Position numbers and translations under genes: made by a program. From Negaprion brevirostris (taxonomy: Eukaryota): a stretch of DNA of 64,000 nucleotides. The notes under the pieces were generated by a model. That model had not been told where the DNA came from. It did no database searches and saw nothing but the letters and a program-made list of their open reading frames with translations. Below, piece after piece: positions 3,899 to 47,185 of this stretch; within the stretch, counting starts at the first letter, position 1, and each line of letters starts with the position of its first letter. The stretch spans positions 22,080,116 through 22,144,115 of the forward strand of contig JARDVH010000149.1 in NCBI GenBank assembly GCA_030324005.1, given 5' to 3'.

Positions 3899-4107
3899 TA
3901 ATGGAAAGCAAGGCTATAGATGTTAACCAACCTATGAATGCTCTGATGAGACTGAATCAGATTAAGCCTGGCCTGCAGTACAAGCTTCTTTCACAGTCTG
4001 GTCCTGTGCATGCACCTGTCTTCACAATGTCTGTGGATGTTGATGGGAAAACCTATGAAGCCTCAGGACCATCTAAAAAAACCGCCAAACTTAATGTAGC
4101 AGTTAAG
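3899..4107 (+). CDS. STRBP: STRBP exon encoding most of dsRBM1 ([70 protein letters not shown])
   Basis: Long pyrimidine tract + ctag| acceptor, AAG|gtaaga donor, 209 nt, phase 1-0. Classic STRBP/ILF3 dsRBM1 sequence with the KKxAK motif. Confidence 0.97.
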
Positions 4108-9300: not shown

Positions 9301-9743
9301 TTAACACTACTTTTACTGTACAATAGCCTAATTATTACAATACTAGTAATGGGCTAGTAATTGAGGAATCATGACAAATTGCAAAATTGAATGCAAAATA
9401 TCTTAATTTTCTTTGGTTAGCAACAGAAAAAACTGGCCAAGAAAACTGCTGAATTGTTGTAAAACCCAACACATTCACTTGTCTTTTTGAAGCATGGGGC
9501 CTTCAATACCCAGCTTAACTCACCAACATGTGATTCCAGTTCAAGTAAGTAGACAACTAGGAGTTATGTGTTTTGTCAGTTTCTGCCAAATCCATGAATA
9601 AACAAATAATAGTAATATTGAATTTAGACACAATGGATTGAGTGCCCTGATAACTTAATGGAATAACTTGTAGTTTTTGCAACAGCCTAAAGAAACACTT
9701 GAATATTCTAGAATGACTTTTTTTTTAATTGCTGTTATTCCAG

Positions 9744-9911
9744 GTACTTCAGGCAATGGGCTGCCCAACTGGTATGGATTTGAAGATGGGCTTTGAATCT
9801 CAGGAAATGGAAGAAAAGTCCTCAGGCGATGATAAAAATGAAACTGTCTCTACAAACTCTAGCAATGACACAGTTGGCTGTGCTACAACCGCAAGCACCA
9901 ATACTCTAGAG
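9744..9911 (+). CDS. STRBP: STRBP exon: end of dsRBM1 plus acidic/Ser-Thr linker (VLQAMGCPTG...KNETVSTNSSNDT...NTLE)
   Basis: ttattccag| acceptor, GAG|gtacta donor, 168 nt, phase 0-0. 'VLQAMG.PTG' and 'KNETVS.NSS' are STRBP-type rather than ILF3-type. Confidence 0.95.
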
Positions 9912-18735: not shown

Positions 18736-18876
<141 letters not shown>

Positions 18877-21503: not shown

Positions 21504-21644
21504 GTTGAAGTAGATGGTCAGAAGTTCAAGGGAGCAGGTCCTAATAAGAAGGTAGCAAAGGCCAGTGCTGCTTTAGCTGCCCTTGAAAGATTGTTTTCTG
21601 GTCCCAGTGCTGCAAACAACAAGAAAAAGAGGACTGGTCCTCCG
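21504..21644 (+). CDS. STRBP: STRBP exon, second half of dsRBM2 ([47 protein letters not shown])
   Basis: ttcttcttag| acceptor, CCG|gtaggg donor, 141 nt, phase 0-0. KKVAK dsRBM motif. Confidence 0.97.
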
Positions 21645-22051: not shown

Positions 22052-22178
22052 GCTAAGGGTCCAATTACTGCTCCAGCAGCTGCAGTCCAGTCGCTCAGAG
22101 GCAGAGGCAGAGGAGCCTTGAGCAGAGGAGCATTTGCTGGTGCAGCAGTAACAGCTGCTCCAGGATATCTAACACCAG
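22052..22178 (+). CDS. STRBP: STRBP RG-rich exon ([42 protein letters not shown])
   Basis: tataaag| acceptor (AAG), CAG|gtatga donor, 127 nt, phase 0-1. Matches STRBP 'AVQAVRGRGRGTLTRGAF...AAPGY'. Confidence 0.93.
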
Positions 22179-22759
22179 GTATGACGCATTGCAAAACAGC
22201 AGTGGTCAGAGTTGAAAGTTATCAAGGAAAATGCTTTTTGCATTGTAAATATCTCGGATTTTATATTCTATTGTCTTATGGGTTTTGCTGAAGGCATATA
22301 GAATTAAGTCATCTCTGTTCAAATACTACACAGCCTTGCAAGCACACCTGCATATAATGAAGCTATCAATGATAGCTTTATATGATAGCTATGGTAACTA
22401 CGAAGCTCTCTATCAATGATAGCTTCACAGCTGATTTTGTTAATTTTGCTTACTTACAAGAAAATAACTGAATTAAACCATTTTTAAACCCACTTGGAAA
22501 AATATAATTTGAAGTATTAAAACAACATGATAAAATGTGGAAAGATAAGTATGTGAGGTATAATCATGGCAATGCATTAATAGCTTCATGACATCCACAT
22601 GCCAATATTGGTAATTGTACACAGTGAAAATTAATATTTTGGAAGTATTAAAAACACACAACCAACGCTCACATCAGTTTTAGTACCTACCTCTGCAAGA
22701 TATACTTACTGTCTAGTGATTTTTTTTATTTGGTAAATGGAATACCTCTTGTTTCTTTG

Positions 22760-23985: not shown

Positions 23986-26271
23986 AGTTGACAGTATATA
24001 CATACAAGTCGTTGCTGCATGCTTTACAACTATGCAAGCAAAGCACAAAGCTGATTGTTGTTTAAAGCCAAGTTGGTGGATGTCAATCTGTGGAGCTTCT
24101 TTCACAGACTTGTACAAAATTATCCATTTGGTTATGTAGAAGTTCCTTATTATTTACAGAGAGTCAATTGTTGAAATTATGCATTGAGAACGCTTACTGT
24201 AGTAACAATGTTCTTTCAATTTTTCTACCCAACAGTTTTCTCCCCATAGTTACACTGATGGCCATACTTCTTGCAGGAGTGTAGTTCCATAAATACCCTA
24301 CTCAATTCCCTATNNNNNNNNNNNNNNNNNNNNNNNNNNNNNNNNNNNNNNNNNNNNNNNNNNNNNNNNNNNNNNNNNNNNNNNNNNNNNNNNNNNNNNN
24401 NNNNNNNNNNNNNNNNNNNNNNNNNNNNNNNNNNNNNNNNNNNNNNNNNNNNNNNNNNNNNNNNNNNNNNNNNNNNNNNNNNNNNNNNNNNNNNNNNNNN
24501 NNNNNNNNNNNNNNNNNNNNNNNNNNNNNNNNNNNNNNNNNNNNNNNNNNNNNNNNNNNNNNNNNNNNNNNNNNNNNNNNNNNNNNNNNNNNNNNNNNNN
24601 NNNNNNNNNNNNNNNNNNNNNNNNNNNNNNNNNNNNNNNNNNNNNNNNNNNNNNNNNNNNNNNNNNNNNNNNNNNNNNNNNNNNNNNNNNNNNNNNNNNN
24701 NNNNNNNNNNNNNNNNNNNNNNNNNNNNNNNNNNNNNNNNNNNNNNNNNNNNNNNNNNNNNNNNNNNNNNNNNNNNNNNNNNNNNNNNNNNNNNNNNNNN
24801 NNNNNNNNNNNNNNNNNNNNNNNNNNNNNNNNNNNNNNNNNNNNNNNNNNNNNNNNNNNNNNNNNNNNNNNNNNNNNNNNNNNNNNNNNNNNNNNNNNNN
24901 NNNNNNNNNNNNNNNNNNNNNNNNNNNNNNNNNNNNNNNNNNNNNNNNNNNNNNNNNNNNNNNNNNNNNNNNNNNNNNNNNNNNNNNNNNNNNNNNNNNN
25001 NNNNNNNNNNNNNNNNNNNNNNNNNNNNNNNNNNNNNNNNNNNNNNNNNNNNNNNNNNNNNNNNNNNNNNNNNNNNNNNNNNNNNNNNNNNNNNNNNNNN
25101 NNNNNNNNNNNNNNNNNNNNNNNNNNNNNNNNNNNNNNNNNNNNNNNNNNNNNNNNNNNNNNNNNNNNNNNNNNNNNNNNNNNNNNNNNNNNNNNNNNNN
25201 NNNNNNNNNNNNNNNNNNNNNNNNNNNNNNNNNNNNNNNNNNNNNNNNNNNNNNNNNNNNNNNNNNNNNNNNCATTAGATTGGTTCCACTGGTCGGCGCA
25301 ACACCGAGGGCCGAAGGGCCTGTACTGCGCTGTAATGTTCTATGTTCTACGACCCAGTGATAATAGTACGGAGTTCTTTGGCAGGGATGGAAGAAATTGA
25401 TGTTAGCCTTCACAGTGTTTAATTGGAAGAAATTATAGCTCATCCAGCACTGCATGTCAAATAAGTAGTGTAACAACCTCAGAGTGATTCACTTAAGAGA
25501 GGTACAGCTGGAGACCAATCACTGTACAAGTGGAAGCTGTCCCCTTGTCTGCAGGTGATGTAATCAGAAGACAGCATATGGATGAGAGGGATGCTCAGGG
25601 GCTTTCAGAGGTAATATTACAGGTTTGGTGAGAAAAGCCATTGCTAGAGATTGTCTGGTCAGAGTGAAGTCAAGCAAGGGTTAATACAGTGGTGAAGTGA
25701 TGTTGGGAGATGTGTAATGAGTAGGAAAGGAACAAGCAGGGAATAATTTAATTTTCTGGAAGTATTTATCTTTTCACTAGTTCCACTAAAAATTTCTGAT
25801 TCTGACATTTGAGCCACGATTTTATATTGCTCAGGTGGTCACGCACCCAGTCCAGAAATGCGGAAATCACGCACGAAGCTATTGGGAATGCATCCAAATG
25901 TTGTTGCACACTCGTGCAATGTTTTGGTTGGCATGTGCGAGTGTAAGTCAAAAGCACACCCGCTGACAATATAGCAGGCAATTTAACCCATTAAAGAGCC
26001 AGTTGAATGCAATTTTATATGGCCTTCTACTTTTACAGTTGGTAGGCAGGTTGGCCTTTCCTTTTTAGCTGTAACCACAATCCAGGATGAGATGGAACGT
26101 CAGGGCTGAAGTAAGACTAAAAAAAAGTGTCTGGTGACTGAGGTTTGCATTTGAATGTGCTGCCTAGACACTATTTGTAAAGTTCTGTATTTTTATAGGC
26201 CTGCAGCTCCTTGAGACAGCTCCGCACCAACCTGTATTCATTTTCCTCAGTGACTGACCTTTCCCCGCCTT

Positions 26272-27178
26272 GTAAGAAGACTCACAACACCAGGTTAAAG
26301 TGCAACAGGTTTATTTGGTAACACGAGCTTTTGGAGCACTGCCCTTCATCAGGTGAGTGCAGGATTTGGTTCACAAACAGGGCATATTTGGACACAAACT
26401 CAGTTACAAGATAATGGTTGGAATGCGAGTTTAACAGGTAATCAAAACTTTACAGGTGCAGAGAATGCAAGTGGAGAGAGGTTAAGCACAGGTTAAAAGG
26501 TGTGAATTATCTCAAGCTAGGACAATTAGTGAGATTTTGCAAGCCCAGGCAAGTCGTAGGGGTTAGGGATAGTGTGACATGAACCCAAGATCCTGGTTGA
26601 GGCCATCTTCATATGTGCAGAACTTGGCTATCAGTTTCTGCTCGGCAGTTCTGTATTGTGTGTCTTAAAGGCTGCCTTGGAGAACGCTTACTCGAAGATC
26701 AGAGGCTGAAGGTCCTTGACTGCTGAATTGTTCCTGTAAGCGTTCTCCAAGGCAGCCTTCAAAATACACAACAACGTAAAATCGCCGAGCAAAAACTAAT
26801 AGCCAAGTTCCGCATGCATGAGGACAGCCTCACCCGGGATCTTGGGTTCATGTCACACTATCCGTAACCCCCACCATTTGGCCTGGGCTTGCAAAATCTC
26901 ACTAACTGTCCTGGCTTGAGACAATTCACATCTCTTTAACCGGTGCTTTACCCTGTCTCCACATGCATTGTCTGCCCCTGTAAAGACTTGCATTCCACCA
27001 TTATCTTGTTGAGCTTGTGTCTATATATGCCCTATTTGTGAATCAAATCCTGCATTCACTTGATGAAGGGGCAGTGCTCTGAAAGCTTGTGCTAGCAAAT
27101 AAACCTGTTGGACTTTTAGCTGGTGTTGTGAGACTTCTTACTGTGCCTACCCCAGTCCAACACCGGCATCTCCACATC
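26272..27178. mobile_element. Penelope-like element 3' end in inverted (palindromic) configuration
   Basis: Arms 26272-26691 and 26736-27141 are reverse complements. The right arm encodes 'VSVLQGSLQNTQQRKIAEQKLIAKFRMHEDSLTRDLGFMSHY' (GIY-YIG C-terminus). Hammerhead-like cores; ~15-bp flanking direct repeat (26259-26273 / 27178-27192, 13/15 match). Confidence 0.85.
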
Positions 27179-27413
27179 TTTTCCTGCCTTGTCTGGCAGC
27201 TCTGAGCCTTTCCCAGCATGCATTACATGTTGGCTGCCCAAAATTGTGTTCTGGGGTTGATGGTGCAAGAAGCATGTTTCATATCTGCTTCCAGGCCCAC
27301 CTAGTGCACTTGCCTAAAAGGTGAAAAATTCAGGCTATGATTGTAGTACTGTATCACTCGCTCCCAGTGTTTGTAGATTGGTATTTTACTTCTGATTTTA
27401 TTGTAACGCTGGT

Positions 27414-27546
27414 TTTGATTTGATTTAATATTGTCATATGTATTGGTATACAATGAAAACTGTTATTTCTTGCGTGGTATCAGACAAAACATACTGTTCA
27501 TAAAATACATAGGGGAGAAGGAAAAGAGAGGGTACAGAATATAGTG
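27414..27546 (-). mobile_element. Rex1-like 3' UTR stub
   Basis: Same 'tttgatttgattta.tattgtca' tail and 3' UTR as the 11780 and 12979 copies. Confidence 0.7.
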
Positions 27547-27828
27547 GTTTGTAAATTTCTGACAAAATCCTCAGCAAACTAGTGTAATGTTTTTGAAGAA
27601 GCAGAAGTAATGTATTTGAGCTGGTCCAATAATTAAATAGTTGGTTGGTTTAATACAGTAAAATTGTTAATGCAGTTAACATCGAAGCCACGAGCATGTG
27701 TGCCTGCAGTAAACTTCAGTGCATCAACAAGAATTATGGAATAAAATTACTTTTGTTTAATTGCTGTTTTTTTTACTGACAATAATAAAATTTAGAAAAA
27801 TAATTCTGGTTTTCCTTTTTGGCTTTAG

Positions 27829-27873
27829 GTTATGGGGCACCATATGGTTACAGTGCTGCTGCCCCAGCTTACG
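27829..27873 (+). CDS. STRBP: STRBP penultimate 45-nt exon (GYGAPYGYSAAAPAY)
   Basis: ttccttttt..tttag| acceptor, ACG|gtatgt donor, phase 1-1. Matches STRBP 'GYGTPYGYSTAAPAY'. Confidence 0.94.
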
Positions 27874-29795
27874 GTATGTATGGCAACGCAATGGATTATG
27901 ACTCTAAGATGACTGTCATTTCCTTAGTGCCTTAATCTAGAACATGTATATCTCTGCATTGTGCAGAGATATATATATGTATGTGAACACTGACAACCCT
28001 TCAAGTACTCAAAGTCCCTTTCCTGGTTTTTGAATGTATATTCAACCATGGTGAAAATATTTCAAATTTCCACAGCTCACTTTTGATTTTCACTTGTTAT
28101 GTTTGTAAAGTAGGATTACAGGGAGTGTGGAATATATTATGAATTCATAAAATTATGGAGTATTTTCCCAAAAGCAGTATGAACTTTTATTATCTTACGT
28201 ACTTTGAAGGGTTCAATGTTACATTGAATTAAAACACAAGGTATTGTTTTTAAGTAGCAACTAGTTCATTCTGATTTACATACTTGTACAAAAACAGTCC
28301 AATTGTCGTTTTGACCCAATTTAAAACTCAGTAGAAGAAATCAGCATAACCTTGTGGTTCTTCTCATGGTTGGAGCTCCTCCTTGCAAAGATTTGTCCAG
28401 TTGTAAAGGGACTGCTTGTAAACTGCTTGTCCCCTTCCATGCCAGAGTGTACATTTTATTAAATGTAGTCCCAGTGCTTACAGCCATTAGATGCTCTATT
28501 CAAAGCAAACTGCACTGCCAGACAAATTAACAAGTTGACTGCATTAACATTTATTTAGTTCACTGCTGCAATTACTCTTCTTCCATAGCCTTAAGCAGGC
28601 ATAATTAATTTTAAAGTTGTAAATGTAAAATGAACCTTAATTACTTGAAATGTAACAGCATTTGTGTTTGTAAAATTTGAATTTTTAATTCTGATGTTAT
28701 TGAATAATATGCCATTTTCAAATTTGGCTAATTTTTTCAATCAGTTATTACAATTTCAAGGAACTGTGGAACATGGATATATTGTGGTTATTTAGCTTCA
28801 AAATTATAACCCAGTTGATTAGCAGCAAAACAGGTGGAACGTCAACACTTATGCCCATCTCACGGGTTGGCTTTTTACAGTGTGCTATCCTTGACAGCTG
28901 AAGGACTTAGTGAAATGGCTGCAATTTTAGGCACTAGTGTGACTTTGGAAAATATTTAATCTTGTTAACAAGTTTGTCTGTGGCCAAAATGAATCCCTCC
29001 CCAACTGATAAACTTGTTGCTTTGTTCCTAATTTTCCCAATTTTTCAAATTTTTACACTCAACTTAATCATTACCTTGTTTAACCCTGGTTGAGGCTATA
29101 ATGAGGAAAGGATTTAAACTTGATTTAAAATTGGCAGTTAAAGTATTCAAGATGAACAGCAGCATTATTAGTATTCTAATCTAGTAAGTTACCATTTTAA
29201 GGACTTAATTTTAAGTTTGTATTTTTCTAGTAAACAAAGCAAGCCCTTAAGCCCTTTTTCAGGGACATTTAAGCCTGTGACCCACTTTCAGTATAACAGG
29301 TAAATGTTTAACACTGGAAAGGTATATCAATTGGCTCAAGCTTTTACAACCTTTTGACTGTTCATACACCTTTGTTGTATTGTCAAATACATTTTCTAAT
29401 GTTAGAACAATACTGACAGATTTCCATAATTTACTAAAATAAGCTCGATTTAATCACAAAAACTGGCACCATGCTGTTGCTTTGAATGAGCCTTATGTGC
29501 AAATGATGACAAGCAAATGTAAGATTTATTTGGAGCCTGAGTTGGGCTGCACACGTGAGCGGTTTGAGTATCACATGAGTTCCAAATATAAATCTGCAAA
29601 GTTTGCTATTACAGTCACAGCTGGCATGTGTCTGAAATAACTTACCTGATGTATTTCTAAAATCAATCCTGAACACTACAGTTTGTATTTTGTCAGTTTG
29701 GTGTGCAGCAATGTTCAACGAGGTCCAAATTAATGTTATTTCCTAGAAATAATCATTGTCATCATTTCTCACATAAAGGCCCTGTGTTTTTCCAG

Positions 29796-29871
29796 TGTCT
29801 AGATGTGATGCAAAACAATATTTGACACGGCTGTTTTCTTGGCTGTAGGTTGAAAGTGTCTTAATGCCTTT
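29796..29871 (+). CDS. STRBP: Candidate hidden alternative exon of STRBP encoding VSRCDAKQYLTRLFSWL* (stop 29846-29848)
   Basis: tgtgtttttccag| acceptor with CTCAC branch-point motif at 29768-29772. Phase-1 compatible with the 27873 donor. Candidate donor TTT|gtaagc at 29872; TGCATG at 29881. Confidence 0.45.
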
Positions 29872-30548
29872 GTAAGCTGTTGCATGTTGGGAAATTTGCA
29901 CTTCAGTCATCTGGTGCTGTTAAAACACCTACTGTTGCTGCTTTGTGATTTCTAATGAAGATAAAAATTGAGAATAAGAAATCTGTCTAGATACTTAGAA
30001 TTCTGTGAGGCCACAAGAACTTAGTATTCAACCAAATAACATTAATTAACAACCCGTAGACCTTTCCAGATCTGCTGTTCAAATAACTTGTGGAATAACT
30101 TTTCTGTAGATGACATTCGATTTAGATACAATCTTGAGAAAAATAGATAGTGTGGTCTTTTGTGGAAGCATGATGTAAATTTATGGTAGCATCTGTAGTG
30201 AACATTTGCTGCCCAAATGTGCTAGGAACTACACTTTTAAATGATTTGGAATTCTAATTTCCTGCAGACACTGTTGTATCAAGATAAAGATTGGAGTGTA
30301 ACAATCAATGTCCAAGTCCACCTCCAATGCGAAAACAACTTATTTGTACGTTTAGTTGAAATAATTTTCATTTTTTCAAATTGTTCCAGTGTTAACCGTT
30401 GCTGATTATTAAATCTGGCAAAATATTCCATTAAAAGATAGAAAGGTTCTGCTTCACTGCAGGAACACTTATTAGAGGGAAAATGAAAGCTTTCTGAGTT
30501 AAGAAAGAGAGAATATTTTACTAACATAATGGAATTGTATAATGAAAA

Positions 30549-30833
30549 GGACAGCACAGTGGCGTAGCGGTTAGCACCGCTGCCTCACAGCGCCAGGGAC
30601 TTGGATTCGATTCCCAGCTTGAGTCATTGTGAGGGGTTTGCACGTTCTCTCTGTGTCTGCGTGGGTTTCCTCCCGGTACTCTGGTTTCCTCCCAGAGTCC
30701 GAAAGACATGCTGGTTAGGTGCGTTAGCTGTGCTAAATTCTCCCTCAGTATACCCGAGTGTCAAGGGGATTTTCAAAGTAACTTCATTGCAGTGTTAATG
30801 TAAGACTACTTGTGACACTAATAAATAAACTTT
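30549..30833 (+). mobile_element. V-SINE, variant with a different 3' tail
   Basis: Head 'ggacagcacagtggcgtagcggttagcaccgctgcctcacagcgccagggac', V-domain, tail ending 'ataaataaacttt'. Confidence 0.8.
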
Positions 30834-31403
30834 AAAAATCTTTTAAAAATGCTGCTCCAGTGGTTTATTTTGTATTCTGTTTTCTTTAAACTACATGAAT
30901 TAAATAGATACCTCAATTTGTTATATAGAATTAGCAGCATTGCAGCCATACTTAGTAGCCCATTTAATAATTGTGTGATACTATTTCTGCCCCGATATCC
31001 TTTTCCACAATGTCAGATTTTATCCCAAATGAATCTATTTTGCAAATAATAAATTTATGTTCAGCAAGATAAGTTTTATTTTTAAAAATAGCATGTAAAG
31101 AAATGTTCAAAGCTTCGTGGTTTCCAGTACTTACTTAAAAGTACAATATGGGGACGGATGTGGATAAAATGTGAAGTTTCCACACATTGTTGATTTACAG
31201 TTTCTGCTTGTTAGCATTAATTTTAATGCTGAGAATTTGTCAGCTTGCTCAATAAAATTAGATGGTATATATAAAGAAAAATAAATAAGTTGAAATTGAA
31301 TGGCTAATCTGGAAAGATCTATGGTAACAGAACCTTATATTCTTAAGTCAATTTAATGGACCATTAAACTTATTTGGGGTCCTTTCGTTTCTTCTCTCTA
31401 TAG

Positions 31404-31486
31404 GTTTGCCAGGCAAGAGAATGCTTCTGTTCCCTGTTATGAAAATTCCAACATCTCCTGTTCCCCTTTACTCCTTTTTCAGCTAA
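31404..31486 (+). CDS. STRBP: STRBP canonical terminal coding exon (GLPGKRMLLFPVMKIPTSPVPLYSFFS*)
   Basis: cttctctctatag| acceptor, phase 1, TAA at 31484-31486. Homologous to the mammalian end '[25 protein letters not shown]'. Confidence 0.93.
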
Positions 31487-32990
31487 TTACTGTATTAGAA
31501 GCCTAACAACTGATTCTGATCACAATAGCAAAAAAAGTGAGCATTAGGAGAAAAAAGTTGCTTTTTTAATTAAATTTCTTTTGAAAATGTTGTATGAAGC
31601 AAATTATTTGTAAAATAATTTTTCCTATCTTTTTGATTTTAACAAAAAGGCTTAGTTCATTAAAACTTGAAGATGTACTGTGAAATGTTACCTCATTCTC
31701 AATATAACTTATGCCAGCCTTCTGTGGTAGAAAGTAATAAACTTTAAAAAGAAAAACCTCACAAACATTTTAATTGATTTATAGCTTCTGAAGAATTTTA
31801 TGGAAGCTTATTTGTGAAGGATGTATAGATAATAGATCTCTGATCACAAATAAACACTTTCTGTTTCAGAACCAGCCAGCGTATTGCCTGTTTTATAAAT
31901 CTCTTTATGTAGCAAAGCCTTAACCCAGTATTGTGCATATGCTCTGTACTGGCCATCATTTGTGTAATGAAAATGGTGTTTTCCCTCCTGAAATTTTATA
32001 ATTAGTTTGTATTAATTTATTTCAAAATTTAGTTTGTGTTGTTCCAAAACACTCAAGTTAGGTCAAATTGGTGGTAAGTCTTATACAAATGATGGAAGCT
32101 GCAAATGAGCTAATATACCTATGTCCTTCCTAAGATCCTGGTATGAAGCATGTGTGTTAAAATTGGCTTAAGGCTATCTTGCCTCCATAATATTATATTT
32201 GGTTCTTGTGGCCTTTTTTATAGTTACTGAGATGCATCTTGACTTTGCATTAGTTGCTTCTAGGTAGATAGGTTTTTAATTGATGAGCTGTAGTACAAAA
32301 ACAAAAAAATCTCCTTTTCTAAGGATCTTTTTCCCACTGCACAAAATGAAGAATCTGAAGCAGCAACAAGGTCCCCATGGATATTCGCTACTTAATTGTC
32401 CCAATTCTTGTTGAGTGCTGCTGTTTTTTTTAAAAAGTGACACGTCTCACCCATGGGCCATCATTCTTGCATCATTGTCAAGCCTAACAGAACTTCAGAT
32501 GCTTGTGTTTATATAATTGTTAACCAACATTTTTTTATCCCGATGCCCTTTTTGTGTATATGCATGCCTTTTGTGAAAATGATATGCCACTTTTATAGGC
32601 TTTGAGAATTATTTTAAGATCATCCTTGATTACATCACTTTCTTCCTAAGATTAAGGTACCAATCAGTTTGTTTGCAGTTTATTCCTGAGAAGGACACCT
32701 TCCTCTTAAAATCTTTTGACTTTATTGGACTGTGGTAAGGATGGAAGTCAATGATAGCAGTTTATCAAGGTGTGTACGAAAAGTCAGACTTAATTCTAAA
32801 TTGACCAGTATGTTAAGAATTTCGTGCTAGGGATCTTGATACTCTGTTAGGAAAGTGCTTAAAGGGACATGAAGCATGAGATTTCTTACCAAAATTGCAA
32901 ATCCCTACTTAATAAAATCTGAAAGATTGTATATTTTCCACTGCAAAACCCCTTAACAAATATGTGCATATGCTGCACTTGTGAAACGCA
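31487..32990 (+). other. STRBP: Putative STRBP 3' UTR of the canonical last exon
   Basis: Repeat-free AU-rich stretch after the stop, with AATAAA at 31736, 31849 and 32911. The end is uncertain; a CR1 begins at ~33004. Confidence 0.55.
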
Positions 32991-33003
32991 AAATATGTAT
33001 ATT

Positions 33004-34480
33004 ATAGAATCATACAGCATAGAAATAGATTATTCAGCCCATTATATCTGTGTCAGTTCTTTGAAAAATCAATCCAGTTAGTCCAGTTCTCCTGCCCTTT
33101 CTCTAAGAACTGATTTTTTTTCCCCCAAGTATTTATCCAGTTACCCTCTGAGAGTTATTAAATCTAATTCTTCTACTATCAGGCAGTGCATTCTTTAATA
33201 AGTTGCCAAGTTCTTCACTTCTGCCATCCTTTGTGTGAGGAGGTTTCTCCTAATTTATCTCCTAATGGCCGCCTTATGATTTTAAAGCTATGTTTCTTGT
33301 TTTAAAATCCCCAACCAGTGGGAAATTTTTCTCTCCATCTAATCAATCATTTCAAAATCCTTTAAAAAAAACTTAATTGAATCACCCCTTAGCCTACTAT
33401 ATCCCAGGAGATACCAGAAAACCTAATTTATGTGATCTCTCAATGTCATCTAACTCTTGGAGCCATGGTGACATCCCCTTCCAAATGCAATGCCCAGAAT
33501 TGGACACACTTCACCAGCTGGGACCTAACCGGTGATTTACAATAGTTTAGCATAGTTTTCTTGCTTTTGTTCTCTATTATTCTATTTACAAAGCCACGCA
33601 CCCCATTTGCTTTAGTTTAAACAACTCTGCTCCATTTCCTGCCACCTGCCATCTTCTGTATAGGGCACTGGTGAGGCCGCAGCTGGAGTTCTGTGTGCAA
33701 TTTTGGTCGCCGCACTTACGCAAGGATATTTTGGTCTTGGAGGGAGTGCAGAGGAGGTTTACTAGGCTGATACCGGANNNNNNNNNNNNNNNNNNNNNNN
33801 NNNNNNNNNNNNNNNNNNNNNNNNNNNNNNNNNNNNNNNNNNNNNNNNNNNNNNNNNNNNNNNNNNNNNNNNNNNNNTGGCAGGGCAGGCTCGAGGGGCT
33901 AGATGGCCTACTCCTGCTCCTATTTCTTATGTTCTTATTACAAAGATTTGCATACAAACACCAATGTCTTATTATCCTTGCATCCCCTTAAAATTGTAAT
34001 TTAGTTTATATTACCCAGTAAATTATGTTTAAATTTATATATTATGTATCATAAATTCAAATATAGTTATATATAAATATATATTTCCGACTGAAATGCA
34101 TCACTTCACACTTCTGTTAAATTGCATCGACTGTCTGTCGGCCCGTTTTGCCAGCCTGTCTCTATCCTCCTGAATTCTGTTTCTGTCCGCCTGACTGATT
34201 ACTACATTTTTTGAGTTTCATTCAGACTTTGAAATCATGCCCTATATATTCAAGATCAGATCCTTAATATATTTCAAGGACAGCAAGACCAAATCATTAA
34301 TATAGCTATCAAGGATAGCCAATGATCCTAGTAGCTGAACCCTGGAGGTATGACTGTTTACTTCTCTCCAGCCTGTAAAACAGCTGTTCATCACTGCTTT
34401 CAACCTCTTTGCCAATTTCATATCTATATTATTGCCCTCTTAACCTGTGGGCCTCAATTTTGCTCACATGTCATTGCATT
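33004..34480 (-). mobile_element. Older CR1 LINE 3' part, interrupted by a younger + strand CR1
   Basis: Antisense CR1 tail 'atagaatcatacagcatagaa', 'cccagaattggacacact'. Continues after 33940. Confidence 0.65.
33654..33937 (+). mobile_element. Young CR1 3' fragment nested in the older CR1
   Basis: '[40 protein letters not shown]' and tail 'ggcctactcctgctcctatttcttatgttctt'. CpGs retained. Confidence 0.85.
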
Positions 34481-34864
34481 TGGAGTTTTAAATGGGATAA
34501 CTTATTTTCTTTATTTTAAACTCAGACTGTACGATATAACTTCAGTAAACTACTGAAAATTAAATATTCATTACATTGATGCTTGCTACAATATCTTCAT
34601 TAATTGATATATGTATATATAATTATTAATGCAGTAATGCTGGATAAAGTATGAGCTTCACTGCCCTGTTAGAGCACATTTACATTTGATGGCTGGTGAC
34701 ACTTGATTACTGCCATTTGCAGAACAATTGTCAGCCTATCAGTTATATAATCCTTTGGCTTCTTATATTCATCAAGACTGTTTCCTACAAACCCAGAACA
34801 AGTATATTTTGAATTAATTTAACATAAGCAAGAATTTTAAGGCACGAGTTAAATTGAGTTTGCG

Positions 34865-35250
34865 GGGAGATGGTGAGTTGAGTGGCATTGTCACTGGACT
34901 GGTAGCCTAGAGGCTCAGGCTAATGCTCTGAAGGCACATGTTAAAATCCTACCATGGTGGCTTGTAGAATTTGAATATATTTGATAAATCTGGAATGTAA
35001 AGGTGGTCTTAGGAATGGTGACCCTGCACCTACCATCAATTATTCTAAAAGCATATGTCCTCCCGTGAATGAAATCTATCATTTTTACCCAGGCTGGCCT
35101 ATATGTGACTCCAGACCCACAGCAATGTGGTTGACACTTAACTGCCTTCTGAAATGGCTTAACAAACCACTCATTTCAAGGGAATTAGGAATGATCAACA
35201 AATGTTGGCTTTGCCAGTGACATCCACATCCCGTAAAAGAATAAGAAAAA
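34865..35250 (+). mobile_element. Shark tRNA-derived SINE (family B)
   Basis: Matches the 48520, 53118 and 60537 copies. Confidence 0.8.
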
Positions 35251-35429
35251 GGCCTCTATTGATGACCTAAACTTCTAAATTGGTGCTTATGCACCAATGG
35301 GAATAATTGATTATAGGGAAATGTTTTATCATTTCTTTACAGTAGAAAAGATGTTGCGTTATTGAGTATTTGGTGGCTGAGTTATTTCCTTCATAATGCT
35401 GACTGAGATACTGGATTGCCTCTTTATTC

Positions 35430-35605
35430 AACTATTCAAGAGGCAGCTGGATATATCACTTTGGTCAAATGGAATCAAAGATTATGGGAAAAAAGAAAGA
35501 TTAGGCTATTGAGTTGGATGATCAGCATTGATTGTAATGAATGGCAGAGCAGGCTCAAAGGGTCAAATGGCCTCCTCCTGCTCCTATCTTCCATGTTTTT
35601 ATGTT
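35430..35605 (+). mobile_element. CR1 3' tail fragment
   Basis: 'gaatggcagagcaggctcaaagggtcaaatggcctcctcctgctcctat'. Other short CR1-type tails at ~25275-25350 and ~41060-41205. Confidence 0.7.
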
Positions 35606-37379
35606 TGTGTGCCACAACCTGTTTGGCTGGGATGCCACAAGGGATAACTATAACCCATTTTTACTGACTTGTACCAATAAATTCATGGCTTTTTCTGGTG
35701 AATTGCTTTTTGTAAAGCAATAATTCATCTCCAGTTTGAGGGGTACATCACTGAAAATTTCCCAACTTTTTTTCTGGTTGAATATCTGATCCAGCACTGT
35801 GTGCAGATTGTATTGGTGGCAATTGCACACATTGCATGCTAATTACCAGCAGTTTTTATTATTTCAACATCAGTGTGACTGGAACAACAACAATAAATCT
35901 GATTATCTAATCTTAATTTAAATAAAACCATCTAAATCTTATGTGAGAATCCCATATAAATAATGTCAATGACTGTAAACACTTGTGTTTTATTTAACTA
36001 GACTACTTTGTCATTCTCCTTTTGCATGTTGGTGATGTTTAAATTAAAAACTGCTTTTTATAATTTGCTGTGAAGTTTTGCAGGTTTTTTTCAAAGCTGA
36101 CTAAGCAATTTATTTTTTGGATGAGTGATGTGAACTTTTTCTCACCCTCTGTCAAGAGAGAAATGTTGACTTTGAAATGATAAGGAATACCACAGTCCAT
36201 TGACATTTACAAATCCTTTTAAAGGGTGGTGACTGGAGGATATTTCATCAACATTTAAGTATTATAGTTTTGATCTTCAGCTTTGTTTATTGCTCACTGC
36301 ATATGATTTATTATGCATCTAATCCTTGTGTATATAAAATGAATTAAGTAGGTACATTTTGATGACCAAGAATATATAGGAATGACCCAGGTACGTAACT
36401 CATCTAATTCTATATGTCTCCTAACACCTTTCAATTTATGAAATACCTAGTAATACTAATAGGCCCTGGGTACTTTGGCTGGAAAAATTCAGAAAGATAA
36501 TGTTACTGTTGCCTGGTGATTGTGGTGTTCATGTTTAATCATTATTACAAATGGGAATACTTTTTTCCTTTTGATTTGTTTTCACTATAATCACAGTTCT
36601 ATATGCAATATTGTATTAAAACTGAATTCTTACAATTTGCTGCCTGTGTGCAGTGCTGAACACTGTCAAACAGTCAAACACAATAATTGGATGATGGTTT
36701 GCAATCCCACCTAAGAAGAAACAGGACTAAGGCAGCGTCCTTATGCAATGCTCGTATATCAATTATAGGGCAATGGTTGCAGAATTATGGCTTTTATTCC
36801 CAATACAGTGATTAACCTTAGCCAGACACATGGGGAAGAGGTCCTAAGCTAAACCAAAAAACAGAAAGGAAAAAGCGGAGACCAATTCATGCTGGTCAGA
36901 ATCTCAGTACTAATGGAGTCAGCAGTATGAAACCAGCTTCAAATTTGCTCTTCTCGTTGCACCACAGAGATTTGGATGTTCTACACAACTCTAATGAAAG
37001 AGAAAGTGCAGATTTGGTTTGTTAAAATTTTTAAACTATTTTTGCTATCATTGGCTTCTTCCTTTTCATATGTAAAGTGGGGGGTGTTGGGGGGAGGTCT
37101 TGAACAGTGCCTGATGATAATGGATACTGTAAGCCTTGCCTCTGTCTACATCCAGCATGTTGAAACTATTCTGAATGGCTTCGTATTGGTANNNNNNNNN
37201 NATAAGCTAATTAGTAAAGATAGCTTTTTGTGCTTGGGTGTGACTCAAATGAACAGTAAGTGGAACGATTCCATGCGATTAAGGATTTGGAATTTATTTC
37301 GGACTGCCAAGGATAGGAGCTTTCCACCATACAGCAGAATTTCATCTTCTTTTGATCATGAAATTCCATCCTTTTAATT

Positions 37380-38340
37380 TTTTCCAACCTTTCTCAGCAT
37401 GGGAAGACATCACTCAGCCTTTAATCGATCACATGTCCAGTCTGGCTTTTACTTCCAGTTGATCTAATTACAGTCTCAATCGCTCAATTTCTGCGATTGG
37501 GAGATGCAGAGGCTTTGACCACTCACCCCTCCTCCTCCTCAGTCACTGCTGCTGCCCACGTGCATTGGATCCTCGTCTTCGTGCTGTCCGCTGCAAGGGT
37601 TGCTTCTGCTGGCAGAGGATGACTGGATCGTTTGGCCAATCTCAGGCTCTATTACTGATAGAGCAACTGGATCCCAGCTCAACCATAGTCTGTTTCTTGA
37701 CTTCAGGCTCTGGTTCCGGCACCAGCTGTGGGATAGAGGGATGGAGACAGTAGTCTCAGCCACATCCTGCTCTCAGCAGCAGTTGCCACTTTCAGCTGCC
37801 TCTAGCTTGGACAACCCAGAATCCTGGTGCTGTCCAAGTGCCCAGTGATTGAAGAGCCTGGTGTCTTGCACGGTTTGTGCACTCAGAGCCTGATCTGCTA
37901 ATCCTCAGGGAGTTAGATCCAAGTGTACCAGCTGAAGAGGATTCCTACTGGCAGCAAGGATAGCAACAGGGATGACGAGCCAAGTTTGGAGAAGGTGAAG
38001 AAATCCAGATAAGGTGGGAGGGTGTAGAAGGAAGGTGGGTGAGAGTGATTCTGGGTGGGGAGAGATGGAAGGGTTGAGTGAGTGGAGATGGGTGNNNNNN
38101 NNNNNNNNNNNNNNNNNNNNNNNNNNNNNNNNNNNNNNNNNNNNNNNNNNNNNNNNNNNNNNNNNNNNNNNNNNNNNNNNNNNNNNNNNNNNNNCGGAAG
38201 GGATGAGTGAGAAAGCGGGTTGGGAAGGGAGGGGTGAGTGAATGAGTGAGGGGGAGGTGGTTTGGGAAAAAGAGCTATGGGTGAGTGGGGGGCTGGTGGT
38301 TGGGCAAGGAATGTGTGATGGGGAGAGAATCTAATTACAG
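37380..38340. repeat. GC-richer repeat-derived block ending in a G/A-rich low-complexity tract with an N gap
   Basis: Composition shift and (GGGA/GAGT)-type purine tract at 38010-38330. Family not identified. Confidence 0.4.
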
Positions 38341-39816
38341 TGTGGGTGAAGAAAGGGTTTCCATGAATCTTCTGACACTATGGAACATAAAAGCTTGGCT
38401 GAAACCTACATGAATGTTATAAAATGGATTTTTCAAAAGTGCTTTACAAACACAGATTTTCATTTTTATATGATGAATTATGTTGATAAGCTGACTTTAA
38501 TACCTACGTGCAGAATGCTACTATTATTTTATTGCTGTTTTTGCTGGCGGAGGGCACATGAATTTTCAAGCTTTTTTATATATATTATATATATATATAA
38601 AACATACACATATATTTGTTCATGGAATGCAGGCATTGCTGGCAAGGCCAGGCTTTGTTACCATTTTTAATTGCCCTTGAGAAGTTGGTGGTGAGTATGG
38701 AGCCACATTGGAAAATAGTTTGCAAAAACTGTTATATTCCTTTGCTTCACTTCGCTTCGCATGCACCTCGTCCAGCAAGGTCATGTTCTGTTGTTCATGC
38801 ACTAACTGCTGAAATGCTGAGGTCACTATGGTGATTTGCTACAGACACATTGGAAGTAATTGAAGATAACAAAGGGAAAGCTAATGTTTTCACCCGCTCA
38901 AAGTCTAATAATTCCACCCATTTCAAGTGGCTTAGACATACATGCATTTTTGCTACAGATCATAAAAGATGCTCTGNNNNNNNNNNNNNNNNNNNNNNNN
39001 NNNNNNNNNNNNNNNNNNNNNNNNNNNNNNNNNNNNNNNNNNNNNNNNNNNNNNNNNNNNNNNNNNNNNNNNNNNNNNNNNNNNNNNNNNNNNNNNNNNN
39101 NNNNNNNNNNNNNNNNNNNNNNNNNNNNNNNNNNNNNNNNNNNNNNNNNNNNNNNNNNNNNNNNNNNNNNNNNNNNNNNNNNNNNNNNNNNNNNNNNNNN
39201 NNNNAATAAATTCAGAAATATTTGTCCAAATGCAATCCCTCAACTGTAATGTTGAAATTATCTTTGCAACAATTCTTGTTGCTTTGCAAGGCGGTCTTAA
39301 TTTCATGGACATTCATACTGTTGGCTTTTGTGATTTGCAAGGCCGAATTTTGAACACGTGCCATTTATTGTCCCAAGTTCTATTCAGTTTGTTTTGCTGA
39401 CCTTTAGATAAAACAATATTTGATGTTAGCATTACTGCTGCTTATAACTTTGTCAAATTCAAACATGTTAGTCATATCCCAGAACGTAGATCTATCAGCA
39501 AGCAGTTGTACACTTCCAAAATGATGCTTGAGATTGTTTCATAATGTATAAACTTTTTGTTTATTCCAAGTGACTAACCACAATGTCTGAAACTCCAGTT
39601 GCTGAAAATTTTACATTTCTCTGCTTTATTTAAAATGAGCTTTTTATCAAAGTAGGAAATGTGTGACTTGAATGCCTTTGACAAAGAATGTCCCGTTTGC
39701 AATGAAAATTCCACATACAGCTAAAGGAGCAGAGAAATATAAATGCTAATGGAACAGCTTCACTGCAGTGATAATTAATGTGCAGTTTTGCTTCTCTGCT
39801 TTTTTCCTTACTGTAG

Positions 39817-39911
39817 GTGGTTTTTTCATTGACAATCCATAGTACCAGCCTCGGGCCATCGCACCTTTTATTATTCACTTGGGTCCTCAGGATTTCGACT
39901 CTGACTTCTAG
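39817..39911 (+). CDS. STRBP: Candidate distal alternative last exon of STRBP: GGFFIDNP*YQPRAIAPFIIHLGPQDFDSDF*
   Basis: Strong acceptor (cttctctgcttttttccttactgtag|), phase-1 compatible. Internal TAG at 39840-39842, second TAG at 39909-39911. Resembles an alternative STRBP C-terminus as I recall it (unverified). Confidence 0.6.
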
Positions 39912-42900
39912 AACCATCAGATTGTGAGACTTGAAAACTTATTTTTGTTATGTCAGTTCGGCTGTGGGCTAGGGAAAAAATGGCAGACTGTTTCGAGGCC
40001 ATATATCTATCCATCCCTTGCACGAATAGCAATCTTTGGCAGTAGCTTACTTTAAATTTAGAATTTAAATGTTTAAGCCAAGATCATGAGGATTATTTAT
40101 CAGTGATTCCAATCATTAGAAATTTGAACTGTAAAATGAAGTTGATTCTCTTTCCTATTCTTCCATTTTAACATATACCAATCATATGCTGTTTCATTAG
40201 AGTTTGCATTTGAGTCCTGTATTTTGTTTTTGTACTCCAGTAAAAATTGTTGTGAATTTGACTTACTTTGTCAGCTCTACTGCTAGTCATTTACTTAATG
40301 GCTTCAACAATTAGATTTTAAAGTGAAATACCATTAATATGTTGCAAAACCATCAGATTATTAGTTATAAATATTGTGCACTACAAAAGTAACACTAAAT
40401 CAATCCTTTATTTAAAAAGTAATGAATATTCTCCGGTGTGGATATATTTGAATGCTAACGATTCAATGTTTTCTTTGAATTATTGATACAGGGTTTAAAA
40501 TACAATTGTAAAATAATTTTCTAAATTTATGGTGGCTGGGCACTGTTTAAGGTAATTGCTTAATACAAGCAAAATATGAAAGCTGAACAAAGCCACTGGC
40601 TTCATGTACAGTAAGATATTTAAAATTAGATCAAATGTATTTAAAGGAGATGATAAGCACAAATAGAGGAAAACAAATTTTCATTAATTACCAACATTTT
40701 CTATAGCATGGCTGATGAATTAATACTTATTCAAATATAAAATGTATGGGATTAATAATGAAAATATGGCCAATACTTGAAATGTGTGTTCATTAGCATT
40801 TTTGTTATTTATAGAATTGTAATTTTATACTATATTTCTTTAAACTGTTGGAACAATAAATGCCATTGGAGATTGGCATTTATCTTATTTATTATAAGGC
40901 ATCTGAAATCATATGCTATTTATCTAGATTAACATTAAAAACTACCCCAGATTACACTCCCATATCTGCAATTAGTTACTTATCCACTTCACTGCCATTT
41001 TCATTGTAGAAGTGAAATAACTTTTTGTTACTTTTATGTTCAGATTAATTTGATTAAAAAGTACCTGGATCTGTACCTGAAGTGCAGTATGTTATAGGAC
41101 TATGGGTGCAGGAAAGTGGGATCAGAAAGGGCATATAGGTGTCCTTGGGCTGGCATGGACAAGATGGGCCACATGGCCTCCTGTGCTGCAACTTTTCCAT
41201 GGTTCTAATAAATGTGGCAGTTGAGAAGTTATATTTTGGTTTAACTTCATCCATCTCAGTGGTTTATTAAACATTGCTTGTGTCTGCAATGTCTAAGTTA
41301 AATTACAGACTTTCTCTTTCTGCTGCCAATGAAATTGATGGCAAAACCATATCCAGGCAGGTAACATCAGCAATGACATCCCACAGGTGAGTGAAAAATT
41401 ATTACACAGTATTCTTGGGAAAACAGATGTTCTCAACAAGTATCATCACCTGAAAGTAAGACACAATTGTCTTTCTACACTGGAAAATTCATTTAGTGAC
41501 ACTGTTGACACTACTTTAAATATTTTTTAAAAACCTGTGCCATTGTGCTGCTATCATGTTATCCTCCCTCCAGCCCATTGCTTATAAAACTTTATTCTGA
41601 ATGATTGCCTTTGAGTGTTCTCCAGTTGTTTTCAGGTGCCCACTTTCTGAAAATATTTTTTGCCATTTATTGCTTTTTTTTTGTGGATTGATAATTCTTT
41701 TTAAAAATTAATTTTCAATTTGCAGGCTACTTCTCAAAAGTCTTTTTCTACTTGCACAGTGTCACTGTTACTTGTTGCATCTCAATATTTTCTCATAGGG
41801 GTTGCCTTAAGAAATTTCAGCTCAATTCTGCTCCTTTTCCCACCAACTGATGCAAGCTTCTGATTCAAAAAAAATTTATGGTCAGAATGACAACGATATT
41901 ATAATCTTGGAACATCTGATTTTTGTTCTTGATTAATGAAAACATTCTTGACAAATGATTTTGTTTTTGTTCAAAATGGTTCTAATTCTAAAACTTCCCA
42001 GGTATTCTGCTTTGTATTCCTTTGATAGCATTGACATTTGTTGCCCCCTGACAAACATTTCATGATATTCAGAAGTAGAGCCTTCACCAAAAGTTGCAAA
42101 TGCAACTTATTTATTGTAAGTAGATTCTGCAGATGAGCCACAGTTTTGTAGTTATACCAACAATTTCAGTAGAACCTGGGAACACTATACAGAGCAAGCA
42201 GCATTCTGCTCTTTTCACATCAAAACTCTCCTCTAGAAATAGTCAAAAGGTTACTGTATCCCTGAGTTCTGCGGTGGTGTTGACATGAATTGTAACTGCT
42301 AATATTATCAAACTTCACCTAATCTTTAGGTGATCTTTGGTGCAAATATCAGCACTCCAAATTAGACAGCCTGATCTTGGTGCCAGTTTAATTCCAAGTG
42401 ATGATCACAACACATGCAAGGCAGAAGGAGCCACTTAACCCAGTGGTATTCAAACTTTTTTGATTGAAGGACCCTTTTTCAAATGGATTTGTAACCACAA
42501 AGACTGCCATCCAAGTTATAATATCCATCCAATGAAAGTGCTGCATCGAAGGAGTGTTTCAATCGTGCTCTTAACAGATAATCGCTTTGCGTTGCAGTTT
42601 GAGGGTTAAAACCCATGATGAAATATACCAGATAAACCTTGAGATAAAGACAAAATGCAGGTCCACTAACATTCCAGGGTATGCCAACTGAAGAGCTTTT
42701 TATGTGCTGGAGGCTTATGCATGTAGTGTGTCATTAATAGGCAATCAGTTCACAGATCTCATTTTTACTTTATTTAGATATTTAAGAGGCTCAAGATAGA
42801 TTTATTTTTTAATTTGCAAAATACAGATTTCCCTCTCTCCTATGGAAGTAGTCACTTGAACATGTCATTTGCAAAAATACAGACTTACGCAAACCCAGTT

Positions 42901-45900
42901 CAGTTTCTCAGTGTTATTTAATCATTCAAGGGCTTATGTGGTGAAAGATTTAAGTAAGTCAGACTGACAGCTTGTCCACATTATCAATAATCAAGCCAAC
43001 AGGAGATTAACGTAAAAAGAAGATGCTGAAAGTATTTAGCAAGCCTGGCAACATTATAATTATACTTGCTCACAGCATGGGTCCAAATTGAATACACCCA
43101 AGTTTCAAACAGCAGCACTCCCTGCCCATCAACTTTAAATGCAAGACTCATTGCTGAAACCCTGATACCTTGAAGAAGGACAAGTATTCAAGAGTTTCGG
43201 GCTGCAGTGTACATTTGCAACACATGCATGGTTATATTTCTTGCTCTTCCCTTGTTGTCTTGAGAAGATGTAGTGAGCTCTCTTGAAACACTGCAGTCCT
43301 CTTGGCTATTGTGCTTCTGAGATGTTATTGTGTTGGGAAATTTTGAGGATTTTTATCCCGTAGCAGTGAAATGATGATACTGTTGTCCAAGCTAGAATAG
43401 TATACAACTTAAAGAAGAACTTGGAGGTGGCGATGTTCCTATTTTATTGATGAAAATGTTGGGTGCTTAGATTTTCCATTGGATCTGCAGAAATCTTGTT
43501 TCCAAGGGAGTAGATTTTGTGGTAAGCAATGTGAAGCTACATTGAAAGTTGACTGGGAATTAAACTGTCCAAACTTCATTTAGCTCATTGGACTTAATGC
43601 TATAACTGCAGGGTAAAAAGTTCCTTCTTAGTAGACGATCCCACTGACTGCAAAGCATCTAGTTCCTCTGCCCACACCCACAATAGGGGTTTTCAGATAT
43701 ATGGTCTTTTTTTTACTTCTCTCAAAGACCAAGGAAGACCCCCATATCTGGTAATATCTATTAGCCAATGATTGCATATTTTTGAAGGATGGTATAGTAT
43801 TTCCAATATATACTAACTGTTTTAAGAAACTATAAATAAACCTCCAAATTTCTGTGTTGTGGCAAGAGTACAAAATGTAATGGCTCCTATATAATTGATG
43901 GTACTTCCAAGGCTCTCTGTCATCATAAGGGATTTGTTCATTACAACTTGTGAAACACTATAGTTCAAGTATTTTAGCCCAAGGACATAGTGAGAATACT
44001 GGTAAGTTAATGCAGATCATTTTTGAGTTACTGTACTGCTGGATGGGTTTCTGCTCCTGTTCTGGGTGACTACTATGAATCTCTTGTTGCTTCAAGAGCA
44101 TTTATTTGCAGTGAGTCTCTTTCCTCACCAGTGTAGTTGAATAGACCTTTCAGCTCCGCTGACACCAAATAAAACATGAAATCAGCAATTGAAGTGGGGA
44201 GATTTCATCTATGGCAGTGGAGAGGAATACACCTGTACTTGTTGAGAACCATTTTTTCCAGGGTATAATTGTAATAATCTTTCATGGTTCTGAAGTTAAT
44301 ATTGGTGTTGTGTGTTTCATTTATCTCTTTATGTGAAATCAGTCATATACTACAAAGTTTATACTTTTATCAGTATTTTCTGGTCCAACAATAACTTACA
44401 TGTTAATCTTCACTCCAGTAAAGGTAGTTATCATACTTAAATTGCACCATTCTCTCATGTATTATGATGTAGTCTAACAGTTGTACTGCACATTTGAGGA
44501 CCAGAAATTGATTAGAATTGTGGCAATATTATTTTTTCCAGTATACAGGTTAGCATTTCCAAATTGCTCAAGGCAATGCCAGTGCATTGGTTGCACGAAG
44601 TTCCAAATTGTTTTGGATTTTAGATTGTGTGTCCAGAATCCATTGTGAGCTACTCCATGTTGCTTCAGGATGCATTCTGTGTATAAAACCTGTGAGTATA
44701 TAATGGAACCAATGCATAGGCCAGAACTATTCAATGGAATGAAGTGAACTGTCACAAAGTCAAAAATTGCTAAGCTGCTATTGCAGATGTTTTGTGTTTC
44801 AGACCTACTCTGGACTATCTTTCATATTGTATTTCTTTGTCATTCTTCCGCTTTAAAATAGTGGAACTCCTCTTTATCATCACTAGCAGAAGCAGGCTTA
44901 CCAAGTAAATCTTCTGCTGGAGAAAGCAATTTATGTAGCAGTGGAGGTTTCTTGTACGAGGCATTTTATCCTCTATGCCAAAGGAATTGGTTAGCCAATG
45001 TGTATATATTGTCTTTTATTTTTATTTTTGCTGTGGGAAGTTGGGGTGACACACATATGCAACAGGATGGGAATTATTTACAAGTTTCTTCATGAACACA
45101 TGCCCATATTTCCGTATTGGCTGCTTTTCCTTCCAAATTATGCCAGTCATGCAATTTGGAAACCTTTTATTTGCAATGTCCTGCTTATTGCAAAAGGCAA
45201 GCACTGAATAAATGTTTGATCTAGATTTCTTAATATGTTAGTCGTTGAATTGTTTTTCATTTTTCGTGGTTGATCCAACTTTGTATGTAGATGCATACAA
45301 GTTAATATTAAAAGAATTAACCTACACATTTCATGTTTGCAAATGGCTTATTACAATATTGTTTGAATACCATCAGCCATGTCTTGAATGTGCTTTGAAA
45401 CTATGCCCAGTCACCTTAAACTACAGTTTATGCAATAATTTGTTAGAATTGAATACTTCTCAGTTGTAAGCTAAAGCACAATTCTAATTCAGCAATACTT
45501 CTCTCAGGGTAATTAAGGGATTTGAAATGCTGGTATTGACTCTGGTCGTTTAAAATCCCTACCAAGATGTAAATTGAATTTTCAAATGCACACAATCAGG
45601 GCAGTATAATTACCAAACTCTTCCAAAATAATTACCTTGATGTAATCAATTATTTAGCTTTCCATTTGTTTCTGCGTATAATTTACAGAAAGTACTTTTG
45701 AAGCCTCAAGGCTCACCTTTTGAGGTTATAGGTAGGTGTACTCCATCAAATATATAAAAATATGTAAGTATTTTCAGATAGGTAAAAGCTACAGAGGAAA
45801 ATCAGTCTTCATTGACAATGTATATAATTACAAGTTACTAAGACTAGGAAACTACCTTGAAGTAGAAGCTTATTCGTGTGTTACTAAATGTTTAGAGAAG

Positions 45901-47185
45901 TGTGTGTGAAAAGAATAAAGGCAATAACTAGGTTAATCATTATGAGCATAAATGAAATGATATATAGTGTATATTTTTTTGTTGTATGCGATTTTTGTCA
46001 CAAATAACTGTGCAACATAGCCAGTACTTGCATTTTGTACAATAAAATATCACAATATAAATTTGTGTTGAGTATTTTTGGAAGAACTGATTCTACTTAT
46101 GGCCACTTCCCTTCTTGAATACTCTTCCAAATGAACTTTCATGGGTGTTGGAATGTTAGCTGTTACGTGAGTGAATGGATATTTCATCTAAAAGTTAATA
46201 CCATTGCATCATTCTATAAAATATTAACTTTGTTCAGTATTTCCGTAACTTTAGGTTGAGATCCACTAAAGATGCGACACTTTTTTTTTGTTGTCTTATC
46301 TCAGTAAGATTTAATTAAGCATTTCAGTGTTTTAAGTGAATTTCAATCAAAGTGGCTGATTTGAAACTACTATCTCTAACTTGTTGGAGCAATAGTGCAA
46401 GGCATTAAAGAGTCTTAAAACATTTATTTTTATCAACTTTCCATATTTTGGCTGTTCTGCATTGGAGAAGTGTCAAGTGGAGATGAGATGTCTCATTGGG
46501 TAGATGAAATATTAAAGAGGCCAATTTCAGGCTATTTTCCAAAACTCACAGCTAACGCTGAAACATTAAAGTGATGAACCTGGAGCCAGACATTCCAGTC
46601 CTTCAGCCCCAAAAAGCAATGACCAAATGGAGAGATTCTCCTGCCCTTAGAAGTATTGCGCTGTTAAACTCGTTTGTGCTGACCAACAGGAAATATGGGT
46701 GCCATAGCAAATTGTGCCACAGAGTTCTAGAGGTTGTGCATGTGGTTTTCCAACTGTGAGCTGAAACAGTGGGACAATGAAATGAGTGGTTCAATTCATT
46801 TACTCAGATACTTTACCAGTTGCTAGCTCCTTTACTAAAGTAAGAAATAGAATAGACCATTGCACTTCCCTTTTTCCCCTTCATCAGAAAGAGATGCATA
46901 AATAATACTTCAAAAAGCTTTAAAAAAGAACAGGTAAACCCACATGGGAAAAATACTTAGAGATGATGAGTGAAAGTGAACTGCATGCATGCAGCACAGA
47001 CTTCAGTACTAATCATGCTTTTGCACAGGTTTTGTTTGACCAGAACTGCATTTTAATGTTCAGAGAGACAAATATATGTCTCTGAATGTGAATTAAATAA
47101 AAGTTACATATCTACAAAATGTAACCCTTTCATAGGATTGTCATGGTTCTGGACATTTTTAGGGTACAAGAGCACTCAAAGCATA

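Follow-up and report, generated by a model that had tools for sequence, protein, structure and literature searches.

We find that the stretch of DNA analysed here (64 kb, hereafter the window) carries two alternative last exons of STRBP, and that the distal one, to judge from comparison with other species, is a real exon, conserved across jawed vertebrates and already annotated in RefSeq, whose isoform models include it from chimaera to mammals. Its frame is interrupted in the assembly by one in-frame TAG that, on our own judgement of the odds, is probably a consensus or assembly error. There is no case of recoding to be made: the stop most probably reflects an error, or else a private allele at the most, and is not a property of the species. 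An earlier, sequence-only reading of this DNA had offered four explanations for the TAG, of which assembly error emerges as the most likely, with contigs from three sequencing runs (X1, X5 and X7) reading TAT. The features under discussion are these:

69-22180, + strand: six upstream STRBP coding exons with open frames, covering the end of the DZF-dsRBD linker, dsRBD1, a linker, dsRBD2 and the RGG region
27829-27873, + strand: penultimate coding exon, with a phase-1 donor common to both last exons
31404-31486, + strand: coding part of the proximal (canonical) last exon, ending in TAA; its tail is found in 13 of the 24 chondrichthyan proteins examined
31454-31456, + strand: Ser codon TCT in the proximal last exon, where retrieved orthologues have Tyr (protein alignment)
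39724-40112, + strand: invariant 389-nt block around the distal exon in X1, X5 and X7 (contig comparison)
39790-39816, + strand: acceptor of the distal last exon, made up of a polypyrimidine tract and the AG at 39815-39816
39817-39911, + strand: coding part (31 codons, the junction Gly counted in) of the STRBP distal alternative last exon, which closes with the true stop TAG at 39909-39911
39839-39842, + strand: in-frame TAG site with two window-only letters, A at 39839 and G at 39842, where the runs have C and T (contig comparison)
40951, + strand: third window-only letter, A, where X1, X5 and X7 have T; a non-coding transversion (contig comparison)

In the arrangement that we propose, one phase-1 donor would feed two mutually exclusive STRBP last exons in jawed vertebrates, proximal at 31404 and distal at 39817, and use of the distal acceptor would exchange a basic/hydrophobic proximal tail for one of 31 residues that is aromatic-acidic, and would change the 3′ UTR as well. 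The two-tail layout comes from the sequence and from the RefSeq models of other species, and we infer its use in this species and a function of the tail. The distal exon would be intact in this species, with Tyr at 39840-39842, and the TAG and the change at 39839 would be a local error, of base calling or of the consensus, in a gappy draft, in which case there is nothing to read through or edit.

The gene context places the distal exon within STRBP. A tblastn search with three chondrichthyan STRBP proteins gives 80-99% identity over the six upstream exons, the penultimate exon and the distal exon, all on the + strand, and the upstream pieces matched by P0001-P0003 lie at approximately 69-170, 3898-4110, 9741-9914, 18736-18873, 21504-21644 and 22052-22180 (83-99% identity), so that this exon map puts the distal exon downstream of the dsRBD/RGG exons on the same strand. 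To judge by these identities, the organism would be a shark. The acceptor had been described as strong, and the AG at 39815-39816 indeed follows a long pyrimidine tract and ranks second of 3851 + strand AG sites in a crude ad hoc score, the top rank going to the proximal last exon at 31404. It had also been said to be in phase with the donor after 27873 and 8.3 kb beyond the canonical stop; the donor leaves a G and the exon opens with GT, which yields Gly in frame, and 39817 lies 8331 nt past the canonical TAA (31484-31486). The frame reads as reported, with GGFFIDNP, TAG at 39840-39842, 22 open codons and TAG at 39909-39911, and both junction products of the penultimate exon occur in shark RefSeq isoform models. 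An upstream acceptor in the shark models, which cover 98% of an extended query, was ruled out: their tails show the ordinary junction. No tandem repeat was found in 27000-47000, in keeping with the description of the surroundings as repeat-poor, and a Pfam scan of the exon peptide returned 0 families. Ten N gaps in the window (e.g., 24314-25272 and 38977-39204), four of them of exactly 100 N, indicate a fragmented, scaffolded draft assembly. As a separate observation, in the Callorhinchus milii STRBP models P0001, P0138 and P0140 the RGG exon and the penultimate exon are separated by about 36 residues that the shark models do without, and tblastn reported no match in the window for these residues.

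The exon is conserved well beyond sharks. A protein search with the exon translation, carrying X at the stop, returned 132 proteins among 134 candidates. Among the 120 of these 132 that were listed, nearly all are named spermatid perinuclear RNA-binding protein, and they come from chimaera, sharks, sturgeon, paddlefish, bowfin, gar, lizards, many birds and a cat; the tail is carried by 120/120, with Tyr (116) or Phe (4) at the position of the TAG. Of a further 47 cluster members, 29 end differently, mostly in the proximal tail, and the remaining 18 have the distal tail, with Tyr in 11 and Phe in 7. The 138 retrieved tails (120 listed plus 18) therefore hold Tyr in 127, Phe in 11 and Trp in none, which bears out the earlier statement that other vertebrates have a sense codon here, and none of the stored proteins terminates at this position; these tails are not 138 independent observations, because they are heavily related (102 of the 120 listed share one bird-type tail). 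In chondrichthyans the distal tail is found in 11 of 24 proteins, from 7 species, and 29 of its 30 residues are those of the window. The peptide had been called protein-like from its letters, and the identity of all 29 residues besides the stop to the STRBP tail in 11/11 chondrichthyan carriers is far beyond chance.

The same junction and tail are present in the RefSeq STRBP models of Callorhinchus milii (XP_007907237.1, P0001), Scyliorhinus torazame (XP_072344510.1, P0002), Stegostoma tigrinum (XP_048415129.1, P0003), Mustelus asterias (XP_078082661.1, P0121) and Macaca fascicularis (XP_045228526.1, P0149). These distal-tail models, all of them predicted, have Tyr where the window has TAG, and the species that have them also have proximal-tail models. 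Exon map, phase and homologous isoform tails thus agree with the proposal that this is an alternative STRBP last exon. The flanks of the distal exon (39750-39935) resemble the bird-type contig translations P0005, P0009 and P0011, including the codons just past the true stop, and this resemblance on the intron and 3′ UTR sides therefore suggests conserved non-coding splice or 3′-end signals. At the level of literature listings, we found no paper on the STRBP distal isoform, its function or STRBP readthrough, nor one linking STRBP to ultraconserved elements, an idea that was dropped; the available part of PMC10943486 deals with STRBP targets rather than with STRBP's own isoforms.

The status of the TAG was judged by comparison with other sequence data. 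Of 22 sequencing runs matched, the contigs of four were compared over 39210-41000: X1 and X13, which have the same organism label, and X5 and X7, from two relatives. In X1, which contains 0.97 of the sampled words, only 3 of 1791 positions depart from the window, and at 15/15 sites where X5 and X7 both differ it agrees with the window; we therefore regard it as apparently conspecific, either the species of the window or a sister to it, and it may even be the source sample. At 39839 and 39842 the contigs read C and T (Pro-Tyr) in X1 (2/2 covering contigs, at depths 6 and 7), X5 (1/1) and X7 (1/1); X13 has no cover at 39497-39884, so it is uninformative at the TAG site. The earlier account of a frame broken by one TAG is thus correct for the letters of the assembly and fails for three other data sets, all of which read TAT, and the proposition that the organism itself carries the TAG gains no confirmation from the contigs of X1, X5 and X7. 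That account also overlooked a second private change, at 39839, 3 bases upstream of the altered base of the TAG codon. Between X1, X5 and X7 we count 34 variable sites in 1791 nt with none in 39724-40112, a gap so long that it arises among 34 sites in 0.7% of 20000 random placements, and the changes at 39839 and 39842 fall inside this otherwise invariant 389-nt block. It counts against an error that the X1 contigs break near the site (overlap 39836-39860), though a similar break at 40005-40027 comes without a variant. Among the 22 listed runs none is given as RNA. X5, provisionally taken for RNA, crosses from the intron into the distal exon in a single contig, as DNA would, and shows neither a joint nor a loose end at 39817, which is uninformative on expression. 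Elsewhere in the compared region, at 40498-40535, there is an AT-rich segment of 30-35 nt at which the X1 and X7 contigs branch and contigs of other loci attach with loose ends, this segment being a short sequence common to other places in these genomes.

The character of the window-only letters points the same way. All three (39839, 39842 and 40951) are transversions, compared with 4 of the 34 differences between species (Fisher p = 0.0045, or 0.024 if the pair is taken as one event), an argument that is weaker for the 39839/39842 pair because real multinucleotide mutations are enriched for transversions. At 31454-31456 in the proximal last exon, the window has Ser (TCT) where 13/13 chondrichthyan proteins with that tail, and 29/29 stored proteins matching the motif, have Tyr; this is possibly another consensus error, or else a species-specific change. 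Across 364 codons compared with 24 chondrichthyan proteins, the only residues never seen elsewhere are the TAG, this proximal Tyr-to-Ser and one intronic codon that reflects the exon boundary chosen. Two damaging private changes in one conserved gene, the stop and the Tyr-to-Ser, would fit an error-prone consensus, and the ten N gaps of the fragmented draft speak for an error as well.

The most serious alternative is that the assembled animal carries a private or heterozygous multinucleotide allele, perhaps a 4-nt inversion by template switching, through which the distal isoform would lose 23 residues and the proximal isoform would be left untouched. The stop lies in the last exon, and junction-dependent nonsense-mediated decay would therefore not be expected of such an allele. 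The two changes are only 3 nt apart, which suggests a single mutational event; two of three random sites fall so close in 1% of trials, and human clustered or multinucleotide mutations show an excess of transversions according to PMC4158752. The window's four bases at 39839-39842 are moreover the exact reverse complement of those in the runs, which one in nine possible double changes would satisfy. X1 may come from another individual, and because Logan contigs drop minority alleles, its contigs leave room for heterozygosity. Against this, neither a flanking inverted repeat nor a template extending past the 4-nt core is present within 500 nt, whereas definite microinversions have flanking inverted repeats and segments under about 15 nt, such as this one of 4 nt, are indistinguishable from chance by the criteria given in PMC8755829. 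The TAG site also lies within a strongly constrained block, and the other window-only oddities (40951 and 31454-31456) point to a general error rate. On balance we hold a private allele of this kind to be unlikely, if a serious contender, and its narrower form, a natural 4-nt inversion in this animal that truncates only the distal-exon isoform, to be a little less likely again.

Readings in which the TAG belongs to the species fare far worse. A nonsense change fixed in the species or lineage, retiring or shortening the distal isoform, would explain the presence of the TAG in the assembly, and the conspecificity of X1 is not provable from coded labels; however, near-identical X1 reads TAT in 2/2 covering contigs, as do both relatives, and the 22 codons past the TAG are without decay, so that the proposed lineage-specific change is contradicted and strikes us as highly improbable. 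More improbable still is a genuine TAG that the cell decodes, whether through programmed amber readthrough or with A-to-I editing turning UAG into UIG (Trp). Near-cognate tRNAs can insert Tyr at UAG, and the frame past the TAG is open and conserved. According to PMC4615788, U at +4, the base found here, is the second most permissive and described as moderately so, but the context past the stop is UAC CAG, as against the leaky contexts CUAG, CAAUUA and C at +4. Nor is the stop shared by X1, X5, X7 or any of the 138 retrieved orthologous tails, and 39790-40030 folds no better than shuffles (z = 0.54); readthrough, as earlier suggested, thus finds neither a conserved stop nor a leaky context or stable fold. 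Editing meets with Trp in 0/138 tails and with no duplex beyond shuffles: the partner near 39960 pairs at about -22 kcal/mol, compared with -35 for the best of 607 windows, and that best duplex (33000-46000) is itself within the range of shuffled queries, -28 to -36.5 (20 shuffles, coarser step). The pairing with 39960-39999 is therefore as weak as had been stated. Given Pro-Tyr in X1 and the relatives, and Tyr or Phe without Trp in the tails, fixed nonsense, conserved readthrough and A-to-I recoding are all very unlikely on these comparisons.

A consensus error remains the preferred reading, and its consequences are practical. Base errors seem to be present in conserved coding sequence of this assembly, with three window-only letters in 1791 nt and an altered invariant Tyr, and for that reason other single in-frame stops from this assembly need read checks. 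The present stop resembles the false premature stops that consensus errors produce in draft assemblies, in being private to one assembly, in interrupting a conserved frame and in being contradicted by independent contigs; it differs from them in that two substitutions, spaced by 3 nt, take the place of an indel or a single altered base. Beyond the stop, STRBP has a second C-terminus that is conserved over jawed vertebrates and annotated in RefSeq, and it may be the counterpart of the NF90 tail.

The latter idea goes back to an echo, heard in the sequence-only reading, of the NF90-specific ILF3 tail DFFTD in FFID, which junction-anchored shuffles support weakly. We compared NF90-type ILF3 tails of echidna (P0320), platypus, axolotl (P0173), newt and frogs (P0343-P0345) with STRBP distal tails. 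The echidna and frog tails share 4 of their first 11 residues with the shark and paddlefish tails (p ≈ 0.006-0.007, for an 11-residue window picked after seeing the sequences) and 3 of 11 with bird and mammal tails (p ≈ 0.03), and the axolotl tail gives p of 0.03-0.12. Over all 16 pairs, ungapped p is 0.006-0.12 and gapped p 0.008-0.23, with 0.73-1.0 for the proximal STRBP tail as a control. The NF90 tail, used as a query, retrieved 5 proteins, all of them amphibian, and none from fish or sharks. Separately, the Protopterus annectens locus LOC122811791 (P0170 cluster) encodes a protein annotated as uncharacterized, about 2000 residues long, in which 8 stretches match STRBP/ILF3; the gene may be an expanded, multi-domain one of the DZF-dsRBD type.

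These comparisons make common ancestry of the STRBP distal exon and the ILF3 NF90 exon plausible. We entertain, tentatively and at rather less than even weight, the fuller proposal that both exons go back to a single terminal exon of the vertebrate gene before its duplication, an ancient alternative-last-exon switch having been kept in both paralogues, and that the STRBP tail, invariant from chimaera to sharks and set in conserved non-coding flanks, would be an unstudied functional module. The last exon of ILF3 NF90/NFAR1 is like the STRBP distal exon in belonging to a paralogous DZF-dsRBD gene and in being a short alternative terminal exon after a Gly/Tyr-rich exon, and its tail shares a junction-anchored FFxD and a Tyr at the same offset (P0320 and P0002 are identical at 4 of 11 positions). 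Protein isoforms suggest phase 1 for it. The two differ in length, with 16 residues in the NF90 tail and 31 in the STRBP distal tail and weak similarity between them, and in order: according to PMC9982275, NF110 arises by skipping of the NF90-specific exon, which in ILF3 is proximal, whereas the STRBP exon is distal.
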